Part shown: positions 3,993 through 55,405 of the stretch, one piece after another | Layout: each line of letters begins with the position of its first letter | Position numbering within the stretch: the first letter of the stretch is position 1 | Virus record (IMG/VR): IMGVR_UViG_3300036770_006954 | Span: 96,001-160,000 of that record | DNA from: a virus | DNA: 64,000 nt | Reading direction: 5' to 3' (one strand) | Notes under the pieces: model-generated | The model's database searches: none | What the model saw: the letters and a program-made list of their open reading frames with translations, nothing else | What the model was told of the DNA's origin: nothing | Program-made: the position numbers and the translations under genes

Positions 3993-6149
3993 ATGCCAAT
4001 ATTTAATAATCAATCTATAGACATCTCAAGTGGGTTCGAAAGTATCTCATCAAGAATTTCTGCTCTACAAGCATACAATGAAGCACGACAAGGTCAGATT
4101 GAAAGTGATAAAACTCGTGGTGACAGTTTAGCCCGTTCACTAGAAATATTAGCGGGACAAAAGTCATCTGTTGAAGCAAATCAGTCAAGAAACAAAAGAA
4201 ATCAAGAATCAAGTTTTGATAAACTAATTTCATTAATCAATCAAAGCACTTCGGGTTCGACGTTTTCAAGCACCAATAGTCTCATTAGACAAGAACTTTT
4301 GGGATTAGTCTTTAAAATGAAGGATGAAATAAGAAAGATTATTTCAGAAGAAGCTTTCAGAGTTTTGAACTGTGCTCAACAACAAACCTATCAGGGCTAC
4401 CCAACATCACAACTCCAAAATATATCGTCATTTTCACTTCTCCCTCAACAGGATGGAATTTATGTTAAGGTTAGTGAGGTTGATTTCAACAGCTCTTTAA
4501 AAATAAAACCACAAACTCAAATAGGAAAGTTATACTATGAAACCACAGGTATAACTTCTCTATCGGTGTACAACAACTATGCGGGGAGACAACCATTCCC
4601 AATGAATTTTGAGTTAAATGAAAGAATTCAACAACAAAATTCAACCTTCCGCGATGAGTTTTCAGTACCATATAATGGAAGAAGTAGACAAGGAATTTTT
4701 GATATTGAGTACACCACACAAAACGGGGTGGGAGCATCTGGCGATTATTTCCGTGTATTTCTCTTAGATAGGGAACCTAGTCCACCACCAACTACGGGTG
4801 GCACTATAAGTCAATTGATATCATCAGCAAATACTGTTGTTGATGCTTTGGGGGATTACTATCAATCAATAGAAATCTATAACTCAAAAGTTTTTTTGGG
4901 TAACCTTTTGAATTTAGTATCAGGTACTCTTTCACAGTCATTATCAATTCAACAAATTGAAAATCAAAACAGATTTGTTACAATTCTTAATCGAATTATT
5001 GGGAGATGTGAACCTGGTCAAAGTGAAATAGATGTGTCGGGTGTTGCCAAACTTTCTGAATTAGATATTGATGATGATGAATTTTTTACATTTACAGAAG
5101 TCGAGTTAAATGACATCAACACCGCCTCAGTCAATCAAAAACAAGGAGTAATTGAATTCATAGATTGTGATACAGTTAAACTTCCTGTAAATAATAGTGT
5201 TTTATTACAAGAAGCACAAAATCTTGCAGATAATATAGACAATCTTTCAGTTGAACAACAAGTTGCCGAAATTGATAGAATATTGGACTCAATCACACAG
5301 GAATTCAATCAAACGGGATTCGGGGGGGTATCATTTGATGTCACAAACCCATTCAATCAAAGTTTGTTCAAAAAAATAATATTAGCACTTTTATCCTCAC
5401 TTTTTACCCCGAAAGTGTTGTTACCAATTTTTATATTCAAAGAATATCTTAATAACCAAGTTGTTGGTTTTGCTAATACCCTTATCACCTCAGCGAATAC
5501 AATAATCACTTCAGCAAATACCCTAATTAATTCGGCAAATACAATCAATAATTTAATTGCATCACAAGTTAATAATGGTGTAGATTTTGTCCGACAATAC
5601 AAAAAATTTGTTTTCAATGTTGTCGGTAGGATTATGAATAGATTTTTGGAGCTTCTTTTCAATATGTTAAAGAAAAATCTTTTAAGACTTCTTAGAGAAA
5701 TTTTGAGAGATATTGCTCGTACAAGTAAAGATGCAAGACTTAAAGCAATTAATGCGATATTGGACTATGCCCAACCTTTGATACAAGGGTTTCTCAATTA
5801 CAGAGAATGTAAGTCTTTGATTCAACAGATTCAAAGGCTTCTCTCACTTCTTAGAGGAACACCACGAACTCCACCATCAGGTATTGGATTGTCCCTTTTG
5901 GCGTTATCAGATTTTTTACCAGGTATAAGTCCTGAAAGAGGTGTCTTAAACACCATCGAATACATGGAGGCTTATGGTTTGAAAGTGGGACCATTACCTG
6001 ATGGTTCACCAAACAGAATAATAAGATTTACAACGGCAATACAAAAGGGGGGATATGACGAATTTATTCAAAATGGTAAAGTAAGTGGGGGTGCGTTTGT
6101 ACCACCACTAACGGGAGGGATAGTTAAAATATTTGCTAAAGGATTTTGA
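3993..6149 (+). CDS. large putative virion/baseplate-region protein
   Basis: 718 aa ORF in late operon upstream of the gp5-like gene; short ANT(L/I)I(T/N)S heptad repeat. Confidence 0.5.
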   Translation: MPIFNNQSIDISSGFESISSRISALQAYNEARQGQIESDKTRGDSLARSLEILAGQKSSVEANQSRNKRNQESSFDKLISLINQSTSGSTFSSTNSLIRQELLGLVFKMKDEIRKIISEEAFRVLNCAQQQTYQGYPTSQLQNISSFSLLPQQDGIYVKVSEVDFNSSLKIKPQTQIGKLYYETTGITSLSVYNNYAGRQPFPMNFELNERIQQQNSTFRDEFSVPYNGRSRQGIFDIEYTTQNGVGASGDYFRVFLLDREPSPPPTTGGTISQLISSANTVVDALGDYYQSIEIYNSKVFLGNLLNLVSGTLSQSLSIQQIENQNRFVTILNRIIGRCEPGQSEIDVSGVAKLSELDIDDDEFFTFTEVELNDINTASVNQKQGVIEFIDCDTVKLPVNNSVLLQEAQNLADNIDNLSVEQQVAEIDRILDSITQEFNQTGFGGVSFDVTNPFNQSLFKKIILALLSSLFTPKVLLPIFIFKEYLNNQVVGFANTLITSANTIITSANTLINSANTINNLIASQVNNGVDFVRQYKKFVFNVVGRIMNRFLELLFNMLKKNLLRLLREILRDIARTSKDARLKAINAILDYAQPLIQGFLNYRECKSLIQQIQRLLSLLRGTPRTPPSGIGLSLLALSDFLPGISPERGVLNTIEYMEAYGLKVGPLPDGSPNRIIRFTTAIQKGGYDEFIQNGKVSGGAFVPPLTGGIVKIFAKGF

Positions 6150-6150
6150 T

Positions 6151-6360
6151 ATGACACAAGAAGAATTTAAAATTTTAGTAGAGGTTGCAAAAGACTCAAA
6201 AAATGTTCCCAACTCAAAATTGGAACAATCAATGGACCAATTAGCCAACGAATTTGAAGTAACAAAAAACAATATTCTAGGTTTAAGTTTTTACTTAGAC
6301 AAGATTGAAGAATTGTATAACACATTGTTAAAGGAATACCAACAAAGAAATGGCGAGTAG
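6151..6360 (+). CDS. hypothetical protein
   Basis: Short coiled-coil ORF coupled to its neighbours. Confidence 0.55.
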   Translation: MTQEEFKILVEVAKDSKNVPNSKLEQSMDQLANEFEVTKNNILGLSFYLDKIEELYNTLLKEYQQRNGE

Positions 6361-7849
6361 AATTTGGTTTTATGCCGTTGTTATCGATAATCAAGACCCT
6401 CTAAACTTGGGTCGTATTAGGGCAAATTTGCTCACAGATGACAATACTGCGATAGGAAAAAGTTATGAAGGATTCGGTCCGAAAGATTATTGGACTGCAA
6501 AAGACCCCTTTGTTTTCAATTCTCTTTTACCACTTTATGTATGGACTGTACCTAAAGTAGACGAACTTATTCAAGTTTACTACCACGAGCCGGAGACCTC
6601 TCAGTTTTTAAATGCGTACTACATTCAAGGACCTTTTAATAGAATCCAAAATATTGTACAAGAAAACTTCAACGAATCCCAAAAATATACAGATATTACT
6701 GGGGTACAAATTATTGGGGCAGAAAATTTAAGAAATCCTGATGGAACTTACAAAAATCCTGACCCTGATGGTGTTTTTCCTGACCCAGGTGATGTTGCGG
6801 TATTAGGTAGGGGTAGTACTGATATCATTTTTAAAGAACACACTACCCTTATTAGAGCTGGAAAATATTCAGGTGAACTCGTAGCTAATAGAGACCCCAA
6901 AGGAAATAAGAACAGGGCGTTTATTCAACTTAGTAAATTCCAAAACAAAACAACAATTGGTGATACTGTAAGACAAGCCGACATAGGGATACAAAACCTT
7001 CAGGTAAATTTCCTTATAGAATACGATATTAATAATCCTGAAAATTCATTTAACCTATTCAACGGTACTGTACGACTATACAAACTCTTACCTAACACTG
7101 CAACAACCTCACAAAATCTTAAAGTAGATTCCGATATAGAACAGTATAAGTTTATCAAAGCATCTCAGAGTTTCAGTTTCTTGAGTTTGGACAATTCTAT
7201 TGCTTTCATTAATCAATTTATTAGTGATTGTAATAGTAAACTTAAAACTCAAACAGGAGTTGTGTTATTCAACGTGTTGGATGAGAAATTTCCGATGTAT
7301 TTCAGACCATCAAATAATTTCTATAACCAAATGAAAACCACATCTCAAAATGTGGTTAAACAAAATCTGACAACGGTATTTTCGAAAGTTAAACTTATAC
7401 CTACCGATAAAATTGGGGGTTATGGACTTATATTCCAACAAGGAAGAGTTGGTGACCCAATTAAAATCACTCCTAAGAGTTTCAGAAAAATCGAGACAAA
7501 CGCACTACCTGAAACCTATAATGCATTTGGGGCACAACACGTCTATCTTCTCTCACAACTTTCTCAAATACCTGGTAAAAGTAAAATCAATTTTGATAAT
7601 AGTCTATATGGAATTGACGAACAAAAGTTTTCGTTAGAAATTGAACCAAATACCTCAAGTATGGTAAGGGGTGAAGAATTACTTCAACTCCTCAATGTAA
7701 TTGTTAGGTTTTTAGTTTCTCACACCCACGGATTCCCAGGAGAACCCCCCATTTCAGTAACAGAGGATGGTTCTAGTGTTGATAATCTCATCAAAGAACT
7801 CAATGACGCATATAATAAAGTTTTGAATCAATATATTCGTTTGAATTGA
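6350..7849 (+). CDS. baseplate hub/spike protein, gp5/VgrG-like
   Basis: N-terminal OB-fold motif VVIDNQDPLNLGRIRA...VPKVDE and C-terminal HTH(G) metal-binding spike motif. Confidence 0.7.
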   Translation: MASRIWFYAVVIDNQDPLNLGRIRANLLTDDNTAIGKSYEGFGPKDYWTAKDPFVFNSLLPLYVWTVPKVDELIQVYYHEPETSQFLNAYYIQGPFNRIQNIVQENFNESQKYTDITGVQIIGAENLRNPDGTYKNPDPDGVFPDPGDVAVLGRGSTDIIFKEHTTLIRAGKYSGELVANRDPKGNKNRAFIQLSKFQNKTTIGDTVRQADIGIQNLQVNFLIEYDINNPENSFNLFNGTVRLYKLLPNTATTSQNLKVDSDIEQYKFIKASQSFSFLSLDNSIAFINQFISDCNSKLKTQTGVVLFNVLDEKFPMYFRPSNNFYNQMKTTSQNVVKQNLTTVFSKVKLIPTDKIGGYGLIFQQGRVGDPIKITPKSFRKIETNALPETYNAFGAQHVYLLSQLSQIPGKSKINFDNSLYGIDEQKFSLEIEPNTSSMVRGEELLQLLNVIVRFLVSHTHGFPGEPPISVTEDGSSVDNLIKELNDAYNKVLNQYIRLN

Positions 7850-9385: not shown

Positions 9386-9864
9386 AAAAAATTATCAGAC
9401 TAACCGAAACAGATATTAAAAACTTGGTTCTAAGAGCTTTAAAAGAAGCGGAACATGAACATAACCGTTACATGTTTTTCAGCAACTTAGAGCAACTAAA
9501 AAGACAAGCTGAGAGGTTATTAGAACTTGATTCGGATGTAATACACTCAATTTTGGAGAATGGTCACGATTGGGCAGATGACCATATTACCGTTGCAAAA
9601 GAAAACCTTGACCAAGTGTTTGATTTCTTAATGGGTGAAACTCAAGGGATGGATGATGATGAAATGATAATGGTGGATGATGTCACTGTCTTGGAAGGTA
9701 AAAAAAAGACAGGAACAAAATTATGTGCTAGGGGTAAAGCGGCGGCTAAGGCTAAATATGATGTATACCCCTCTGCATATGCCAATGGTTACGCGGTACA
9801 AGTTTGTAAAGGAAAAAAACCAGGTCTTGACGGAAAAAAAAGATGTTCGGGGACCTATTGTTAA
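9382..9864 (+). CDS. putative internal head protein with MKKIIRLTE leader and Cys-containing basic C-domain
   Basis: Leader shared with 29705 and 30638; LCARGKAAAKAKYDVYPSAYANG. Confidence 0.5.
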   Translation: MKKIIRLTETDIKNLVLRALKEAEHEHNRYMFFSNLEQLKRQAERLLELDSDVIHSILENGHDWADDHITVAKENLDQVFDFLMGETQGMDDDEMIMVDDVTVLEGKKKTGTKLCARGKAAAKAKYDVYPSAYANGYAVQVCKGKKPGLDGKKRCSGTYC

Positions 9865-27580: not shown

Positions 27581-27637
27581 AGGGTTTGGAATTGTCCTTT
27601 TTTTGATTAACCTTTGTACAAATCAATTTTAATAATC

Positions 27638-29638
27638 ATGAACGACACATTAGGAGACGACGATAAGACACTTTCGAGAAAGAAACCTACCTCCGACTCG
27701 GGAACCCCCGTATTGGATAACTTCTCTCGGGACTTGAACAAATTGGCGGAACAAGGAAAACTCGACCCAGTAATTGGTCGTGAGAAAGAAATTGTTCGCA
27801 TTGCTCAAATCTTGTCTCGTAGAAAGAAAAACAACCCTATTATCTTGGGGGAGCCAGGTTCTGGTAAAACCGCATTGGTTGAAGGATTGGCATCTCTGAT
27901 TGTGAATGGGGAATGTCCTAAAAACCTTCTTGACAAGCGTATTGTCAATTTGGACCTTACCGCAGTGGTGGCAGGGACAAAATACCGTGGTCAGTTTGAG
28001 GAGCGTCTAAAGGTTATCCTTGAAGAACTCTCCAATAATCCCAACATTATTGTCTTCATTGATGAAATTCACACATTGATTGGTTCAGGTAACTCATCAG
28101 GTAGTTTGGATGGTTCAAACATCTTCAAACCCGCACTTGCTCGTGGAGAAATCCAATGCATCGGTGCAACCACCTTGGACGAGTATCGTAAGTCATTTGA
28201 GAAGGATGGAGCTTTGGAGCGTCGATTCCAAAAGGTAATCGTGGACCCCTCAACGGTTCAAGAGACAATCCAAATCCTCACCAACATCAAAGACCGCTAC
28301 GAGGCTTTCCACAAAGTGGCATACTCTCAAGAGATTATCGAACTCTGTGTACAACTCGCAGACCGATACATCACCGACCGTGAGTTCCCTGACAAAGCAT
28401 TTGACATCTTGGATGAAGTTGGTGCCCGTAGTCAAACCGAGCAAAAGATTCCTGAAGTAATTGAGGACCTCAAGCAAAAGGCTGCGGAAATCAAACAACA
28501 AAAGATGGATGTTGTTAAGAAGCAGAACTACGAAGAAGCTGCATCCCTTCGGGACAAGGAGCGTAAAATCCTTGCCAAACTTGAAGAGGAAAAGCGCAAA
28601 TTCGCAGAAGAATCTGCAACTACCCGTATCCCCATCTCCGTGGAGCAAGTCTACGATGTGGTTTCCAACATGACCAAAATCCCTGTGAGCAAAATGTCCA
28701 TTGACGACACCAACTCACTTATCAATATGGACAAAGTCCTTATGGAGAAGGTAATTGGTCAAGACGAAGCCGTTTCCAAGATTGTTAAATCAATCCGTCG
28801 TAACCGAATCGGAATTAAAGACCCCAACCGTCCCATCGGTTCATTCATCTTCTTGGGTTCAACAGGTGTGGGTAAGACCCACTTGGCAAAACAGATTGCA
28901 AAGGAGATGTTCGGGTCAGAAGATGCGTTAATCCGCGTCGACATGAGCGAATATCAAGAGAAACATACTTTGTCTCGTTTGGTAGGAGCACCTCCGGGAT
29001 ATGTCGGTTACGAAGAAGGTGGACAACTCACCGAACAGGTAAAAAACAAACCTTATTCTGTTATCCTGTTTGATGAAGTGGAGAAAGCCCACAAGGACAT
29101 CTTCTCAATCCTCCTTCAGATTCTTGATGATGGTCACGCAACCGATTCCCTCGGTCGAAAAATCAATTTCAAGAACACCCTTATCATCATGACCACCAAC
29201 CTCGGAGTTAAGAAACTTCAAGACTTCGGAGCTGGAATCGGGTTCTCCTCAAACAAGTACTCAAACGAGGAAGCCAAGAAACAAATCTTGATGAAGGAAA
29301 TGAAGAACTTTTTCTCTCCCGAATTCCTCAACCGTATCGATGACACCATCGTGTTCCAAACACTCACGAAGGACAACATCGAGAAGATTGTAGGATTGGA
29401 ACTTCAGAAACTCTCGAAGCGACTCGGTGAGATGAAGTACAAAGTGGTGATGGACCCCACCGTTACAGAGTACATTGCAAAAGTCGGTTTTGATGATGTA
29501 TACGGAGCTCGTCCTGTAAAACGAGCCATCCAAGACAAAATCGAAGATTACCTCTCGGAGCTTATCCTAATAGGTAAACTTAAAGAAAACCGAAAATACA
29601 CCTTAAAGGTAGTAAATGAAGAGGTGAAAATCTCTTAA
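27638..29638 (+). CDS. clpC: ClpC-like AAA+ ATPase lacking the N-terminal domain
   Basis: GEPGSGKT, FIDEIH, ALERRFQ, UVR M-domain, GSTGVGKT, GYVG, FDEVEKAH, GARP. Confidence 0.92.
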   Translation: MNDTLGDDDKTLSRKKPTSDSGTPVLDNFSRDLNKLAEQGKLDPVIGREKEIVRIAQILSRRKKNNPIILGEPGSGKTALVEGLASLIVNGECPKNLLDKRIVNLDLTAVVAGTKYRGQFEERLKVILEELSNNPNIIVFIDEIHTLIGSGNSSGSLDGSNIFKPALARGEIQCIGATTLDEYRKSFEKDGALERRFQKVIVDPSTVQETIQILTNIKDRYEAFHKVAYSQEIIELCVQLADRYITDREFPDKAFDILDEVGARSQTEQKIPEVIEDLKQKAAEIKQQKMDVVKKQNYEEAASLRDKERKILAKLEEEKRKFAEESATTRIPISVEQVYDVVSNMTKIPVSKMSIDDTNSLINMDKVLMEKVIGQDEAVSKIVKSIRRNRIGIKDPNRPIGSFIFLGSTGVGKTHLAKQIAKEMFGSEDALIRVDMSEYQEKHTLSRLVGAPPGYVGYEEGGQLTEQVKNKPYSVILFDEVEKAHKDIFSILLQILDDGHATDSLGRKINFKNTLIIMTTNLGVKKLQDFGAGIGFSSNKYSNEEAKKQILMKEMKNFFSPEFLNRIDDTIVFQTLTKDNIEKIVGLELQKLSKRLGEMKYKVVMDPTVTEYIAKVGFDDVYGARPVKRAIQDKIEDYLSELILIGKLKENRKYTLKVVNEEVKIS

Positions 29639-32725: not shown

Positions 32726-33860
32726 GAGATAATATTTTACGCAAAGATAGTAAAATATTCTTTGATTCCAAAGTCAGCTCATAATTGTGGTACCAGTTGT
32801 AAAAATTCTGAGGGGATATTTTTAGTTCATCACTACCCCATCTACGAATCGGTAAATCAGAATATCTACCGTCTGTTACCTTATTAACAAAAAGAATGAG
32901 TTTATTAGAACCCGCGTCATAGTGACTTATCGCGAATCTGATATTCTTCTGTGGCACATTGATGGGTTTACCCGTTCCGAATTGTTTTAATATTTTTGTT
33001 AAAATTTCTGTTCTCTCAGGTGAAACTTCCTCATTTACTTCCTCAAGCAAGTCCGTAATCATTTGGTTAGTTTCCGAAACATACCTCGGATTTTTCTTAA
33101 ATTCATTAACATCAATGTTCCATCTTTCTTCTTCCCAACCCCCAATTTTTTTTCCTCGAGTCAATCCATTCATTGCTGAATAGATACTTACCGAATCTGA
33201 TTGTCCTTCTTCTATATTGGGATAAATTTTCATCAAATAGTATAAATTTCCTGCAGGTATAGATACATTGAAATAATTACTATATTTCTCATCGGTTTCT
33301 ATATTCACACCATAAGGTCCTAATACCTCACTCAATTGATTTGATATCAGTTCCCCCATTTTTTCGGTGAACTCCTCATTTTGATATTCATAAATGACAT
33401 CTAAAATTAGATTAATTTCTCTGGAATACGATTTTAAGATTGTTTCGTTGATAGTCCGAGTATTACTGTTTGCTGTAAAATTTTCGTTGAACTTCCGATA
33501 CAATTTCAAAATCATCTGATATTCCTCTCCGTTTCTATCGAAATAATCCCCAAGGAAAAAATCATTCTCCGCCATCCTATCATCGATGAAATCAGAACTT
33601 TCATACTCCATTGTACCCCCATCCAAAAACCTAGATATCCACCAAGAATCATACTCCTCTAAATTAAAAAAATCGTCTAACTCATTACCATCCATTTTGA
33701 ATATAAAAATAGATTTTACCCTATTGGAATTTTCTATGATTTTATCTACCATGCTCTGTGAAACAACATCTTGCGCCGATACTCTACCCTTGATGTAGTC
33801 AAAAACTAACTCAGGGAAATCTTTTGTTTGTTCTAAAATTATTCTTCGGGACTTGTCCAT
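32712..33860 (-). CDS. hypothetical late protein
   Basis: 382 aa ORF, late motif upstream. Confidence 0.55.
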   Translation of the reverse strand: MDKSRRIILEQTKDFPELVFDYIKGRVSAQDVVSQSMVDKIIENSNRVKSIFIFKMDGNELDDFFNLEEYDSWWISRFLDGGTMEYESSDFIDDRMAENDFFLGDYFDRNGEEYQMILKLYRKFNENFTANSNTRTINETILKSYSREINLILDVIYEYQNEEFTEKMGELISNQLSEVLGPYGVNIETDEKYSNYFNVSIPAGNLYYLMKIYPNIEEGQSDSVSIYSAMNGLTRGKKIGGWEEERWNIDVNEFKKNPRYVSETNQMITDLLEEVNEEVSPERTEILTKILKQFGTGKPINVPQKNIRFAISHYDAGSNKLILFVNKVTDGRYSDLPIRRWGSDELKISPQNFYNWYHNYELTLESKNILLSLRKILSHDSQ

Positions 33861-36619: not shown

Positions 36620-36695
36620 GTCGAAGTAGCTCAGTGGTAGAGCAGCTTTCTTAATTGAAGGTGTGACGCGATAGGTTCGATTCCTGCCTTCGGCT
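36620..36695 (+). tRNA. atypical tRNA-like RNA (8-nt loop CTTAATTG)
   Basis: GTCGAAG/CTTCGGC acceptor, normal D arm, weak T stem. Confidence 0.6.
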
Positions 36696-36725
36696 CTTAA
36701 TTACTCTAAAGACTATTTATAAGAC

Positions 36726-45873: not shown

Positions 45874-45946
<73 letters not shown>

Positions 45947-45992
45947 GTTATGTTGGTAAATTATAGAAAACCGAATCTATAATGTCAAATTG

Positions 45993-46065
45993 TACACCCT
46001 GAAGGACTCGAACCTCCGACATCTTGCATGTAAGGCAAGCGCTCTACCATCTGAGCTAAGAGTGT
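45993..46065 (-). tRNA. tRNA-Val(TAC)
   Basis: Cloverleaf, loop CTTACAT. Confidence 0.93.
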
Positions 46066-46069
46066 ATTT

Positions 46070-46130
46070 GCAGGATATCGCTTAACCTGCGGTGAGTGTA
46101 CCTTTCACCTTGTTCCCTTGCGGTACTACG
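46070..46130 (-). ncRNA. small RNA containing an LSU-rRNA-like motif
   Basis: AGTACCGCAAGGGAACAAGGTGAAAGGTAC followed by a GCAGG/CCTGC hairpin. Confidence 0.5.
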
Positions 46131-46139
46131 ATTTTTTTG

Positions 46140-46245
46140 AAGTCAGTACAGGTACTGCCCCTGTTGCTTGGTCTTTTGCTTAACAGAGTATTATCAATGA
46201 CACTCTGTGAACCTCACCCACGAGTTACTTTTACTCTAACTGACT
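46140..46245 (-). ncRNA. tRNA-like RNA, AGTCA family, T-loop GGCAGTA
   Basis: AGTCAGT/ACTGACT acceptor, ACAGG/CCTGT T stem. Confidence 0.6.
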
Positions 46246-46248
46246 TTG

Positions 46249-46321
46249 TGACCCCACCGAGATTTGAACTCGGAACTCCCATGTTAAAAGCATGGTACTC
46301 TAGCCGTTGAGTTATGAGGTC
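46249..46321 (-). tRNA. tRNA-Lys(TTT)
   Basis: Cloverleaf, loop CTTTTAA. Confidence 0.93.
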
Positions 46322-46328
46322 TTTTTAT

Positions 46329-46604
46329 TAACAAAGAATAACCAGGATTCTGTTTTTAATCTGTCATTAGTCTATTGGCCCCACCTTACCCGACCAGCTC
46401 ACCGTCATGGGTTGTTTTGGGTTGAATCCTCGGTGGTTCAACCGATATAAGGTTGTGGACTTATAACTGACCATTATAAGTTTGTTACCTTATATCTCCC
46501 ACCTTAAGCTGCGATTTCCTGAGTTTCCTCTATGTTCAACATTTCACACTGTTCAGTGACAATGAACACCTGATTTTATTGAACAAAGCGACAGAACTTT
46601 GTTA
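46329..46604 (-). ncRNA. rnpB: RNase P RNA, reduced (~276 nt)
   Basis: GAGGAAACTCAGGA (CR-I), TAGACTAATGAC (CR-IV), AACAGAATCCTGGTTA (CR-V); P1 AACAAAG/CTTTGTT; P2 TCTGTCG/TGACAGA; P3 present. Confidence 0.85.
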
Positions 46605-46605
46605 A

Positions 46606-47016
46606 CTATTCCAAATCCAACATCTGGCGATGCGTGATGTTTTTATTAACCTTGATTTCCTTTTTTCGATTCATCAGTTTTCTAACGGTCCACCAATCTT
46701 TCGATAGAAAAACCACATAACCTACAAGTTTTCCCGAGGCATATGGCATTCGATACTCATCCAGGACAGTAATTTGATAAGGAAAAAGATAACCCGATAT
46801 TTTTTCTTCAATCATGATTTTATAGAAAACTACTTTATCGGGACCCATCCGTTTGAAATAAACATCAGGTTTTTCGTGTTTATTGAAATATTCAGTGATA
46901 AGACCGTCTTTGATTATCAACTTGGAATCCCCATCTAAAAAAGAGTAGAATTCAGCAAATCCATGTACAGTAAGAACGATAATAACAAATAAAAGAGTAA
47001 TAAGAATTATTGTCAT
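46606..47016 (-). CDS. membrane-anchored hypothetical protein
   Basis: N-terminal TM helix. Confidence 0.55.
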   Translation of the reverse strand: MTIILITLLFVIIVLTVHGFAEFYSFLDGDSKLIIKDGLITEYFNKHEKPDVYFKRMGPDKVVFYKIMIEEKISGYLFPYQITVLDEYRMPYASGKLVGYVVFLSKDWWTVRKLMNRKKEIKVNKNITHRQMLDLE

Positions 47017-53731: not shown

Positions 53732-55405
53732 ATGACAGTTTTAGGATTTTCAGTCGGACACGATAAGGGTGCAGTAATAGTTCAAGACAATAGAGTTGCT
53801 ATTGGAATTTCACAAGAAAGACTTAGTAGATTAAAACATGATGGTGCTTTCACTGAGGGTGCAATTCCTGTTGAATCTATTATGTATTGTTTGACAGAGT
53901 TGGACATTACAATCGATGAAATAGATTTAATAGTTTACAGTACAACTGAATTGTTGGATAACACATATGAACAATTTAATAAAATTTTCAAAATACCTAA
54001 AAACAAACTAAAGTTTATCCCACACCATTTAGCACATGCTTATTCGAGTTTTTTCACCTCAGGATTTGATGAAGCTGCCGTGATTGTTGCAGATGCTTCA
54101 GGTAGCATTGCAAATGACAGAACAAAGTTGAAAGAATGGTATCCTGAATTGACAACAGAAGGATTAGAAGACGGTGAAGATTGGACTGAAGGAATTTCTA
54201 TTTATCATTTAAATCGTAAAGACTATAAAGAAGTATACAAAAAATGGATTAAGTATCCCGTCCCTTTAGGAACTGGTGAGGATGTTTCTGTCGGCACTAT
54301 GTATTCTGAGGGTTGTCACCGATTAATTTATTCTCCTGATACTAACTCTTGGCCGGCAGGAAAATTGATGGGATTGGCTTCTTATGCAGACCCTGAGATT
54401 GTTGAAAAAGCTGGAAAATTTATTCAATATGAGAACAATGAATTGTATATTCCAAACAACCCTATTTATCCTCGCGTAACTTGGAAATCTGACTTTTTCT
54501 CTAAAGCTTGTGTTGCGGGTATCTACCAAAGAGAACAAGAACGAGTTTCTCTTTATTTGGCAGACATGGCCAAAAATCTAACAAATTCCAAAAATGTATG
54601 CACCGCTGGTGGGTCTTTCTTGAATTGCAATTCTAACGAATTGATACTTAAGTCAGATTTATTCGAAAATTGTTATTTTGTTCCACCAGCTGATGATAGT
54701 GGAATACCATTAGGATGTGCTTGGTGGGGTTTCCAACAAGTTACCGAAATCACTTATACACCCACAATGTGGCCATATTTTGGTAAAACTTATTCTGATG
54801 TAGAAATTTTAGATGCAACTTCAAGGTTTGATAATATTGATGTCCAATATTACAATAATTTCGATGAAATTTTAGAAATAATAGGTGAGTGGCTCACTCA
54901 AAATAGAGTTGTTGGTTGGTTTCAGAACGGTTCTGAAATAGGTCCAAGAGCTCTTGGAAACCGTTCAATTTTAGCGTCACCAATAAATCGATGGATGAAG
55001 GACCATATTAATCACGATATTAAAAAGAGAGAGTGGTACCGTCCCTTTGCACCTGCAGTTATCTTTGACAAACAAAAGGAAATTTTCGACACAGATTATT
55101 TTTCACCATTTATGTTAGTTACTGCAATCGTTAATGAAAATTGGAGAGAAAAAATTCCCGCTGTAGTTCATGTTGATAATTCTGCTCGTTACCAATCGGT
55201 TACACCTGTGAGCAATCCGAGGTTTTTTGGATTAATCAACAAATTTTATGAAAAAACAGGAGTTCCTGTGTTATTAAACACAAGTTTCAATGGTCCTCAC
55301 GAACCGATTGTTGAAACACCATACGATGCAATTAAAACATTTCTCTCTCAACATTTAGATTTCTTAGTTGTTGGGAATTATATCATTACAAATCAAAACA
55401 GATAG
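53732..55405 (+). CDS. NodU/CmcH-family O-carbamoyltransferase
   Basis: QERLSRLKH, HHLAHA, GKLMGLASY, EIGPRALGNRSILA, RPFAP, LNTSFN. Confidence 0.93.
   Translation: MTVLGFSVGHDKGAVIVQDNRVAIGISQERLSRLKHDGAFTEGAIPVESIMYCLTELDITIDEIDLIVYSTTELLDNTYEQFNKIFKIPKNKLKFIPHHLAHAYSSFFTSGFDEAAVIVADASGSIANDRTKLKEWYPELTTEGLEDGEDWTEGISIYHLNRKDYKEVYKKWIKYPVPLGTGEDVSVGTMYSEGCHRLIYSPDTNSWPAGKLMGLASYADPEIVEKAGKFIQYENNELYIPNNPIYPRVTWKSDFFSKACVAGIYQREQERVSLYLADMAKNLTNSKNVCTAGGSFLNCNSNELILKSDLFENCYFVPPADDSGIPLGCAWWGFQQVTEITYTPTMWPYFGKTYSDVEILDATSRFDNIDVQYYNNFDEILEIIGEWLTQNRVVGWFQNGSEIGPRALGNRSILASPINRWMKDHINHDIKKREWYRPFAPAVIFDKQKEIFDTDYFSPFMLVTAIVNENWREKIPAVVHVDNSARYQSVTPVSNPRFFGLINKFYEKTGVPVLLNTSFNGPHEPIVETPYDAIKTFLSQHLDFLVVGNYIITNQNR

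Follow-up and report, generated by a model that had tools for sequence, protein, structure and literature searches.

The minus strand of the window, by which we mean the whole 64,000-nt stretch of virus DNA analyzed here, carries at 46138-46070 a 69-nt element that belongs to a family of small structured RNAs (roughly 55-95 nt) encoded by uncultured tailed phages within their tRNA arrays. Members of the family share a fold with a pseudoknot, keep one hairpin loop self-complementary through covarying changes, and are in most cases placed directly after a tRNA gene. Our best guess, from sequence comparison, is that the element is a stable RNA that would be cut out by tRNA processing and would form homodimers; we think it moderately probable that the family as a whole consists of pseudoknotted, enzyme-released, stable and dimeric stand-alone RNAs.

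A first-pass annotation of this DNA had pointed to a 30-mer resembling helices 23-24 of 23S rRNA, located between a tRNA-like RNA and tRNA-Val. This 30-mer, AGUACCGCAAGGGAACAAGGUGAAAGGUAC, is found on the minus strand at 46127-46098, within the segment 46070-46130, and is contained entirely in the element. The described surroundings are also borne out: the element is housed in a 182-nt gap between tRNA-Lys (46248-46321) and tRNA-Val, with its 3′ end 4 nt from tRNA-Val, and the gap is part of an island of 27 tRNA genes and a tmRNA identified with ARAGORN and Rfam (Table 1). The upstream neighbor (46140-46247) folds like a cloverleaf but goes uncalled as a tRNA by both ARAGORN and the Rfam tRNA model. 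It occupies the place held by a true tRNA in most other family members; the element trails it as it trails true tRNAs elsewhere, which suggests that this tRNA-shaped RNA is processed like a tRNA. It also has a long central hairpin; in and beside the loop of its center, at 46180-46196, related contigs depart from the sequence of the window. The portal and capsid proteins of the 171.6-kb virus record identify it as a distant T4-like tailed phage, and a covariance model of the family (R1) finds the window copy to be the only one in the record. Contigs covering the region derive, at contig level only, from DNA runs and from two lake-water runs guessed to be RNA.

Table 1. Features of the element and of its immediate neighbors in the window.
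Feature	Position	Strand	Remarks
tRNA-shaped RNA, upstream of the element, 108 nt	46140..46247	-	MFE fold cloverleaf-like, 8-bp closing stem, z = -2.9
A7 run, 5′ end of the element	46132..46138	-	7 A in 49/62 members, 5-8 in the rest
Pseudoknot 5′ strand AUCGU	46128..46132	-	pairs with GCGAU in the P3 loop
P1, 23S-like hairpin AGUA-CC-GCAA-GG-GAA-C	46112..46127	-	matches 23S L23 letters; fits AGUA/GAA consensus
P2 hairpin GGUGA / loop AAGGUACAC / UCACC	46091..46109	-	92% of cells paired
P3 hairpin GCAGG / loop UUAAGCGAUAU / CCUGC	46070..46090	-	100% of cells paired
AAAU spacer, element to tRNA-Val	46066..46069	-	putative RNase P cleavage here, setting the element 3′ end
tRNA-Val(tac), downstream neighbor of the element	45992..46065	-	ARAGORN; Rfam tRNA 67.7 bits

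The family was collected from IMG/VR by pattern scans with several sub-motifs and then with model R1. The scan with the 23S-like motif returned 13 phage contigs with a near-identical element of ~70 nt, always between two tRNA genes. In IMG/VR there were 86 matches at E<0.01 in 85 sources, which align as 64 distinct rows and comprise 62 different complete elements, 52-94 nt long, and the window copy scores 83.4 bits (E 1e-17) against the model. From 5′ to 3′ the architecture consists of the A-run, UCG(U/C), a variable P1, AAR, P2, P3 and an AU-rich spacer of 4-8 nt that leads to a tRNA. A second A7UCG site in the window, at 33666, was discarded; it lies antisense to an ORF, and the frequency of such sites is at chance level.

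The start of the element falls 0-3 nt after a same-strand tRNA in 48 of the 62 distinct members (46 of them at 0 nt), its end falls 4-8 nt before the next tRNA in 39, and the identities of the flanking tRNAs differ widely. Between the tRNAs of these arrays the ordinary spacer is A-rich and has a median length of 5 nt, and A-rich trailers are general, with A at position +1 in 75% of 753 tRNAs. Thus, following a tRNA and set off from the next by an ordinary-looking spacer, the element sits in the array like one more unit. This placement suggests that it would be released by the enzymes that process the tRNAs: the element would be co-transcribed with the tRNAs of the array, freed at its 5′ end by RNase Z or a similar enzyme acting after the upstream tRNA, and freed at its 3′ end by RNase P acting at the downstream tRNA. 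In the same arrays AAAAA follows 126 of the 753 phage tRNAs (63 loci), about twice the number that carry the element, and other small RNAs led by an A-run may follow tRNAs there.

[quoted passage not shown] This is the main rival to our reading, and we regard it as unlikely, if still credible. It is favored by the register of the A-run, which starts with the very next base after the tRNA in 46 of the 62 members; on the other hand, some members have no adjacent called tRNA, one type has a U-run after the element in place of a tRNA, and the 3′ spacer resembles an ordinary array spacer, as expected of an independent unit. The features of the fold that bear on this alternative are taken up below.

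The family appears to be uncatalogued in the resources that we searched, namely Rfam 15, GenBank phages and the genomes of 185,579 prokaryote species. Rfam 15 gave no match on the element, either in the window and 12 diverse loci at the gathering threshold or for the window copy and two divergent members at E≤10; the same searches matched only tRNA, tmRNA, group I intron and freshwater-1 RNA, all at other places. The freshwater-1 matches (RF02979) score just above the gathering score at 9512-9573(-) of locus L040 and 6127-6189(-) of locus L074, within the same phage tRNA arrays, and represent a different small RNA elsewhere in those arrays rather than the element. The group I intron (86.5 bits) is located at 6866-7092(-) of L020, a related phage contig that carries the element. 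In the window a phage tmRNA (33902-34312(+), 84.6 bits) adjoins the tRNA island, and the related loci L016, L038 and L066 also have a tmRNA near their arrays. Among 50,697 GenBank phage records an 851-nt query returned tRNA matches only and the 75-nt element nothing relevant, and a search of the full-text literature with the core sequence returned only unrelated papers. The family may be among the 8,495 unnamed candidate RNAs from IMG/VR in an earlier survey (PMC10690425). The prokaryote genomes gave three pattern matches. Those in Calothrix and Sphingobacterium are due to chance, with no helices and no tRNAs. The third is a true member, located inside an 8-tRNA array on a 20.6-kb contig (CAUYTX010000233.1) that is binned as a gammaproteobacterium and is probably a wrongly binned phage contig.

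Confinement to phage contigs, with the single true match among 185,579 genomes on a phage-like tRNA-array contig, would also be expected of an anti-defense decoy or antitoxin-like RNA. A pseudoknotted dimer of this kind could titrate a host nuclease or toxin, much as phage-borne pseudo-ToxI acts against type III toxins, with the tRNA array supplying expression and processing. Phage tRNA islands have been linked to counter-defense against RNA-targeting systems, and type III antitoxins are themselves small pseudoknotted RNAs. We nevertheless consider such a role improbable: the element is not a tandem repeat, it matches no antitoxin RNA family, no toxin gene is linked to it, and nothing ties it to any particular defense system.

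RNAalifold applied to a plain MAFFT alignment recovered P3 only, and the detection of P1 and P2 required a structure-aware alignment. Over the whole structure 90.9% of cells are paired, compared with 79.9% in shuffled alignments and 24-45% when the pairing partners are slid; double changes occur at 12 of 18 pairs, and the covariation score is 0.325 versus 0.150 (reached in 0 of 500 shuffles). In P3 the outer two pairs covary (GC/AU, and UA/CG in 32 and 31 sequences), while the three loop-proximal pairs (AGG/CCU) are invariant in 64 distinct sequences. The P3 loop is near-invariant across the family (UUAAGCGAURU) and positions A3-A5 of the A-run are invariant in our alignment (A1), measures that are inflated for these parts of the molecule by family-building searches that needed the P3 loop or the 5′ segment. 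We propose that the A-run packs as a triplex on the three invariant pairs of P3, which would give the RNA a compact core.

The pseudoknot joins the segment after the A-run to GCGAU in the P3 loop, located at 46081-46077(-). Its consensus, AUCGY/RCGAU, is paired in 99.4% of cells; 48 sequences have U.G and 14 have C-G. Matched replacement of both strands is seen as ACCUU/AAGGU in the second copy of locus L019 and in L232, where the variant fills a slot between tRNA-Leu and tRNA-Arg that is occupied in L019 by the standard copy; ACCUC/GGGGU is found in the long second copy of L042, and L280 has a G.U wobble. The pseudoknot is thus supported through few independent events, its letters being near-invariant and the covariation coming from four variant loci. 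An 11-nt tetraloop receptor in the P3 loop was considered and dropped, as the pseudoknot variants lose the UAAG letters.

Self-cleavage in cis finds some encouragement in this structure, as near-invariant unpaired nucleotides (the A-run, UUAA and RU) around a pseudoknotted core are typical of small ribozymes. There is also a precedent in the HDV-like theta ribozymes, small structured RNAs with pseudoknotted cores that immediately follow phage tRNA genes on the 3′ side (PMC10879173). However, theta ribozymes cleave before G1, fold into a nested double pseudoknot and open J4/2 with a catalytic C, whereas the phage element starts with A7 and has a different order of helices; neither G1, a 7-bp P1, the nested double pseudoknot nor the catalytic C was found in it. 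Threading an HDV-like fold by eye failed, and neither HDV-type nor other ribozyme families matched at E≤10. The palindromic loop described next, moreover, has no obvious role in cleavage in cis.

The P2 stem shows double compensatory changes at all four modelled pairs, and its loop holds a self-complementary sequence, which in the window is GUAC, only 4 nt long, at 46101-46098(-). Palindromes of at least 4 nt are present in 26 of 34 distinct loops (10.1 +/- 2.5 after shuffling) and palindromes of at least 6 nt in 13 (1.8 +/- 1.3 after shuffling), and neither count was reached in any of 2000 shuffles. They include UGGCCA, UAGCUA, UGCGCA, UAAUUA, UGAUCA, UGUACA, GUGCAC, UGAUAUCA and UGCUAGCA, together with forms that contain G.U pairs, GGGUGCCC and UGCUGGCA. 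Among the longer loops UGAUAUCA alternates with UGCUAGCA, the near-identical minimal members are told apart solely by GGCC, AGCU or GCGC, and in contigs with two copies (L019 and L042) the copies differ in both palindrome and pseudoknot. GGAAC, which is not self-complementary, takes the palindrome site in four close relatives, and in three types of P2 loop a palindrome is lacking altogether. Neighboring bases within a chain cannot pair with one another, yet self-complementarity is kept through the changes; this points to pairing between two molecules, that is, to a symmetric loop-loop contact in a putative homodimer. In the subfamily of the window copy an alternative partner for the loop sequence GGUAC could be GUACC in the same chain, at the base of P1. 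We set this second pseudoknot aside because it has no support from covariation: the GGAAC variants and the members with AGCU or GGCC loops keep GUACC. In the dimeric arrangement that we prefer, the P2-loop palindromes of two copies would pair with each other, and the molecule released from the array would be a stable, dimeric, stand-alone RNA.

Loop words such as GGCC, GCGC, AGCT, GTAC, GATC, GATATC and GCTAGC are typical of DNA recognition sites. The element could accordingly be read as having no function as RNA, being instead a DNA-level site with palindromes for a DNA-binding protein, restriction-modification or recombination, or else a decayed tRNA or spacer, given that it is tRNA-sized and stands in a tRNA slot. 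The stems that flank the palindromes nevertheless covary as RNA helices, with G.U pairs among them, the pseudoknot is maintained by double changes, and the element is conserved across very different phage contigs while the neighboring tRNAs vary. As for descent from a tRNA, the element has no acceptor stem, its 5′ A7 and 3′ AAAU cannot pair, and it goes uncalled by ARAGORN and by the Rfam model for tRNA (RF00005). A locus with no RNA function is, in our judgment, barely credible.

The argument from palindromes to dimers has been validated in other RNAs. In OLE and GOLLD the loop palindromes switch between GGCC, GAUC and AGCU and stay self-complementary, and cryo-EM has confirmed the symmetric kissing loops to which this covariation pointed (PMC12286853). 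GOLLD, ROOL and OLE are phage- or bacteria-borne RNAs of 500-800+ nt that self-associate by loop-loop pairs into a dimer, an octamer or a 14-mer (PMC12286853). The P2-loop palindrome of the phage element likewise covaries and stays self-complementary, and just as the element is encoded in phage tRNA arrays, the genes for GOLLD and ROOL often lie near tRNA islands of phages. By contrast, the element is far shorter and has a single candidate contact, and its self-association is predicted from sequence. Neither the window nor the 12 related loci searched gave a match to the Rfam models for GOLLD, ROOL or OLE.

A further parallel is HIV-1. Its dimerization initiation site is a 9-nt hairpin loop in which a central palindrome flanked by purines forms a kissing homodimer. 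Phage loops such as AAU-GCGC-AA share this layout, although molecule and biology are unrelated and the phage palindrome is often 4-6 nt. In phage T4 the tRNA cluster encodes two small stable RNAs of ~120-140 nt, species 1 and 2 (rnaC and rnaD), which are co-transcribed with the phage tRNAs and released by tRNA-processing enzymes. By description the phage element resembles them, and the capsid protein of its phage is distantly T4-like; the T4 RNAs are longer, and we know of no dimer loop or pseudoknot in them. Phage tRNA islands hold several puzzling structured RNAs (GOLLD, ROOL, T4 species 1 and 2), to which the element adds a very small, very widespread and tractable example. A minimal natural form of 55 nt exists (for instance L040 11543-11597(-)), so that dimerization, folding and possible cleavage would be accessible with synthetic RNA. 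Should the dimer prove real, self-assembly through RNA-RNA contacts would extend beyond the giant RNAs of phage tRNA islands.

We turn now to the likeness to 23S rRNA. The letters concerned comprise P1 together with the 5′ strand and the start of the loop of P2. The LSU domain I segment given in the first-pass annotation is correct, as two true LSU rRNA pieces, fragments in viral contigs retrieved with that reader's motif, carry AGUACCGUGAGGGAAAGGUGAAAGGCAC (L008, matching RF02541 at 111.9 bits) and AGUACCGUGAGGGAAAGGCGAAAAGAACC (L015). The helix 23 hairpin letters, AGUACC-GNRA-GGGAA, are present in the window, and the pattern GTACCGNNAGGGAA-N0-4-GGYGAAA occurs once in it and in none of 100 shuffles. 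Local alignment of the window copy to the 23S of L008 gave 25 identical positions of 28 with one 2-nt gap, at a score of 34; among 2000 dinucleotide shuffles, 2 scored as high. With L015, which is E. coli-like, the score was 24 and did not rise above shuffled sequence (82 of 300). A real likeness thus exists, but it is modest and depends on the 23S chosen. The LSU covariance model had no match at E≤10 over 45900-46700, large models being insensitive to pieces of 30 nt.

The module to which these letters belong is a standard one. [quoted passage not shown] The strand letters AGUA-CC...GG-GAA are present in the window, and GUA-CC/GG-GAA is kept in 14 distinct members. P1 of the window copy reads as a sarcin-ricin-type motif with a GNRA tetraloop cap. 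The phage element and the 23S site near L23 both have AGUA-CC-GNRA-GG-GAA, and so share the 2-bp stem, the GNRA cap and the flanking AGUA/GAA. The Rfam LSU consensus shows these letters as a CC/GG hairpin of 2 bp that is capped by GUGA, while AGUA and GAA stay unpaired. As AGUA/GAA is the sarcin-ricin consensus and 23S has such a site near L23, the likeness appears to be the reuse of a standard module, sarcin-ricin plus GNRA cap, the same building block as in L23. The structures part beyond the hairpin: in the Rfam consensus the GG of AAAGG pairs long-range and a CCCC/GGGG hairpin follows, whereas GGUGA of the phage element pairs locally with UCACC in a covarying helix, so that neither the long-range GG nor helix 24 of 23S is matched by the element.

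Within the family the match is limited to the variable P1 arm, and most members do not have the module. P1 is the least conserved part of the molecule, and is replaced, lengthened or absent in most members; it may be a plain GNRA hairpin (GAUG-GAAA-CAUC), another hairpin or a long insert (L017 and L108 types), and there is none in the 55-nt forms. The 23S score reaches at least 34 in only 8 of the 62 distinct members, among them the sibling L003, which scores 44 with a GUGA cap. Where the hairpin is kept as GUACC-N4-GGGAA (14 distinct members) its cap can be GCAA, GAGA, GUGA, GAAA, GUUA, AAAA, AAGU or UAAU. Nothing in 23S helices 23-24 corresponds to the conserved features of the family, namely the A-run, the pseudoknot, the P3 loop and the palindromic P2 loop. 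P1 is a free, swappable arm, which in this phage takes the form of a sarcin-ricin plus GNRA hairpin.

The first-pass annotation had offered three readings of the 23S-like hairpin: mimicry of rRNA for the binding of ribosomal proteins, decoying of enzymes that target rRNA, and a shared tertiary module. The last is the one that we retain. True mimicry of helix 23, whether it served to bind a ribosomal protein or assembly factor or to decoy an rRNA-targeting enzyme, could account for the above-chance likeness to some bacterial 23S, and sarcin-ricin motifs are common protein-binding platforms. The 23S-like P1 is dispensable, however, the likeness being missing at the level of the window copy in most relatives, an outcome that the first-pass annotation had itself named as refuting its reading, with a cap that varies freely in the 14 variants of the hairpin type and a P1 that is absent or unrelated in most members; pairing past the hairpin is unlike 23S, and neither the Rfam LSU model nor alignment to E. 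coli-type 23S gave a signal above background. We therefore regard mimicry as very improbable. The case is a caution that striking likeness to a ribosomal helix can come from reuse of a building block rather than from mimicry.

A swappable arm on a symmetric dimer also admits a bolder proposal, which we hold to be quite unlikely: that the family is a new functional class of RNA that works in dimeric form at phage tRNA arrays, acting either as a module that sets tRNA 3′ ends, through self-cleavage or by guiding an RNase, or as a compact pseudoknotted display whose exchangeable arm, here the sarcin-ricin/GNRA hairpin, captures a host factor or a defense nuclease during infection.

Several other features of the window merit mention. 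Directly upstream of tRNA-Lys, the segment 46327-46606(-) matches archaeal RNase P RNA weakly but at full length, scoring 23.2 bits where the gathering score is 84 (E 1.4e-4 when 801 nt were searched). It contains GAGGAAACUC and ACAGAA..GGUUA motifs and is possibly a phage-borne RNase P-like RNA. The tRNA that ARAGORN calls at 36620-36696(+) has an anticodon of four bases (taat) and no assigned amino acid; it scores 35.3 bits as an Rfam tRNA and could be a frameshift-suppressor-like or otherwise odd tRNA. The segment 44947-45044(-) matches the Rfam tRNA model at 41.4 bits over 98 nt with no call by ARAGORN, and may be a long-armed or intron-bearing tRNA-like gene. Elsewhere in the window, an ATP-dependent protease homolog (phrog_4871, E 1e-237) and a Nol-like carbamoyltransferase (phrog_1601, E 2e-104) are encoded at 27614-29638(+) and 53732-55405(+), respectively.
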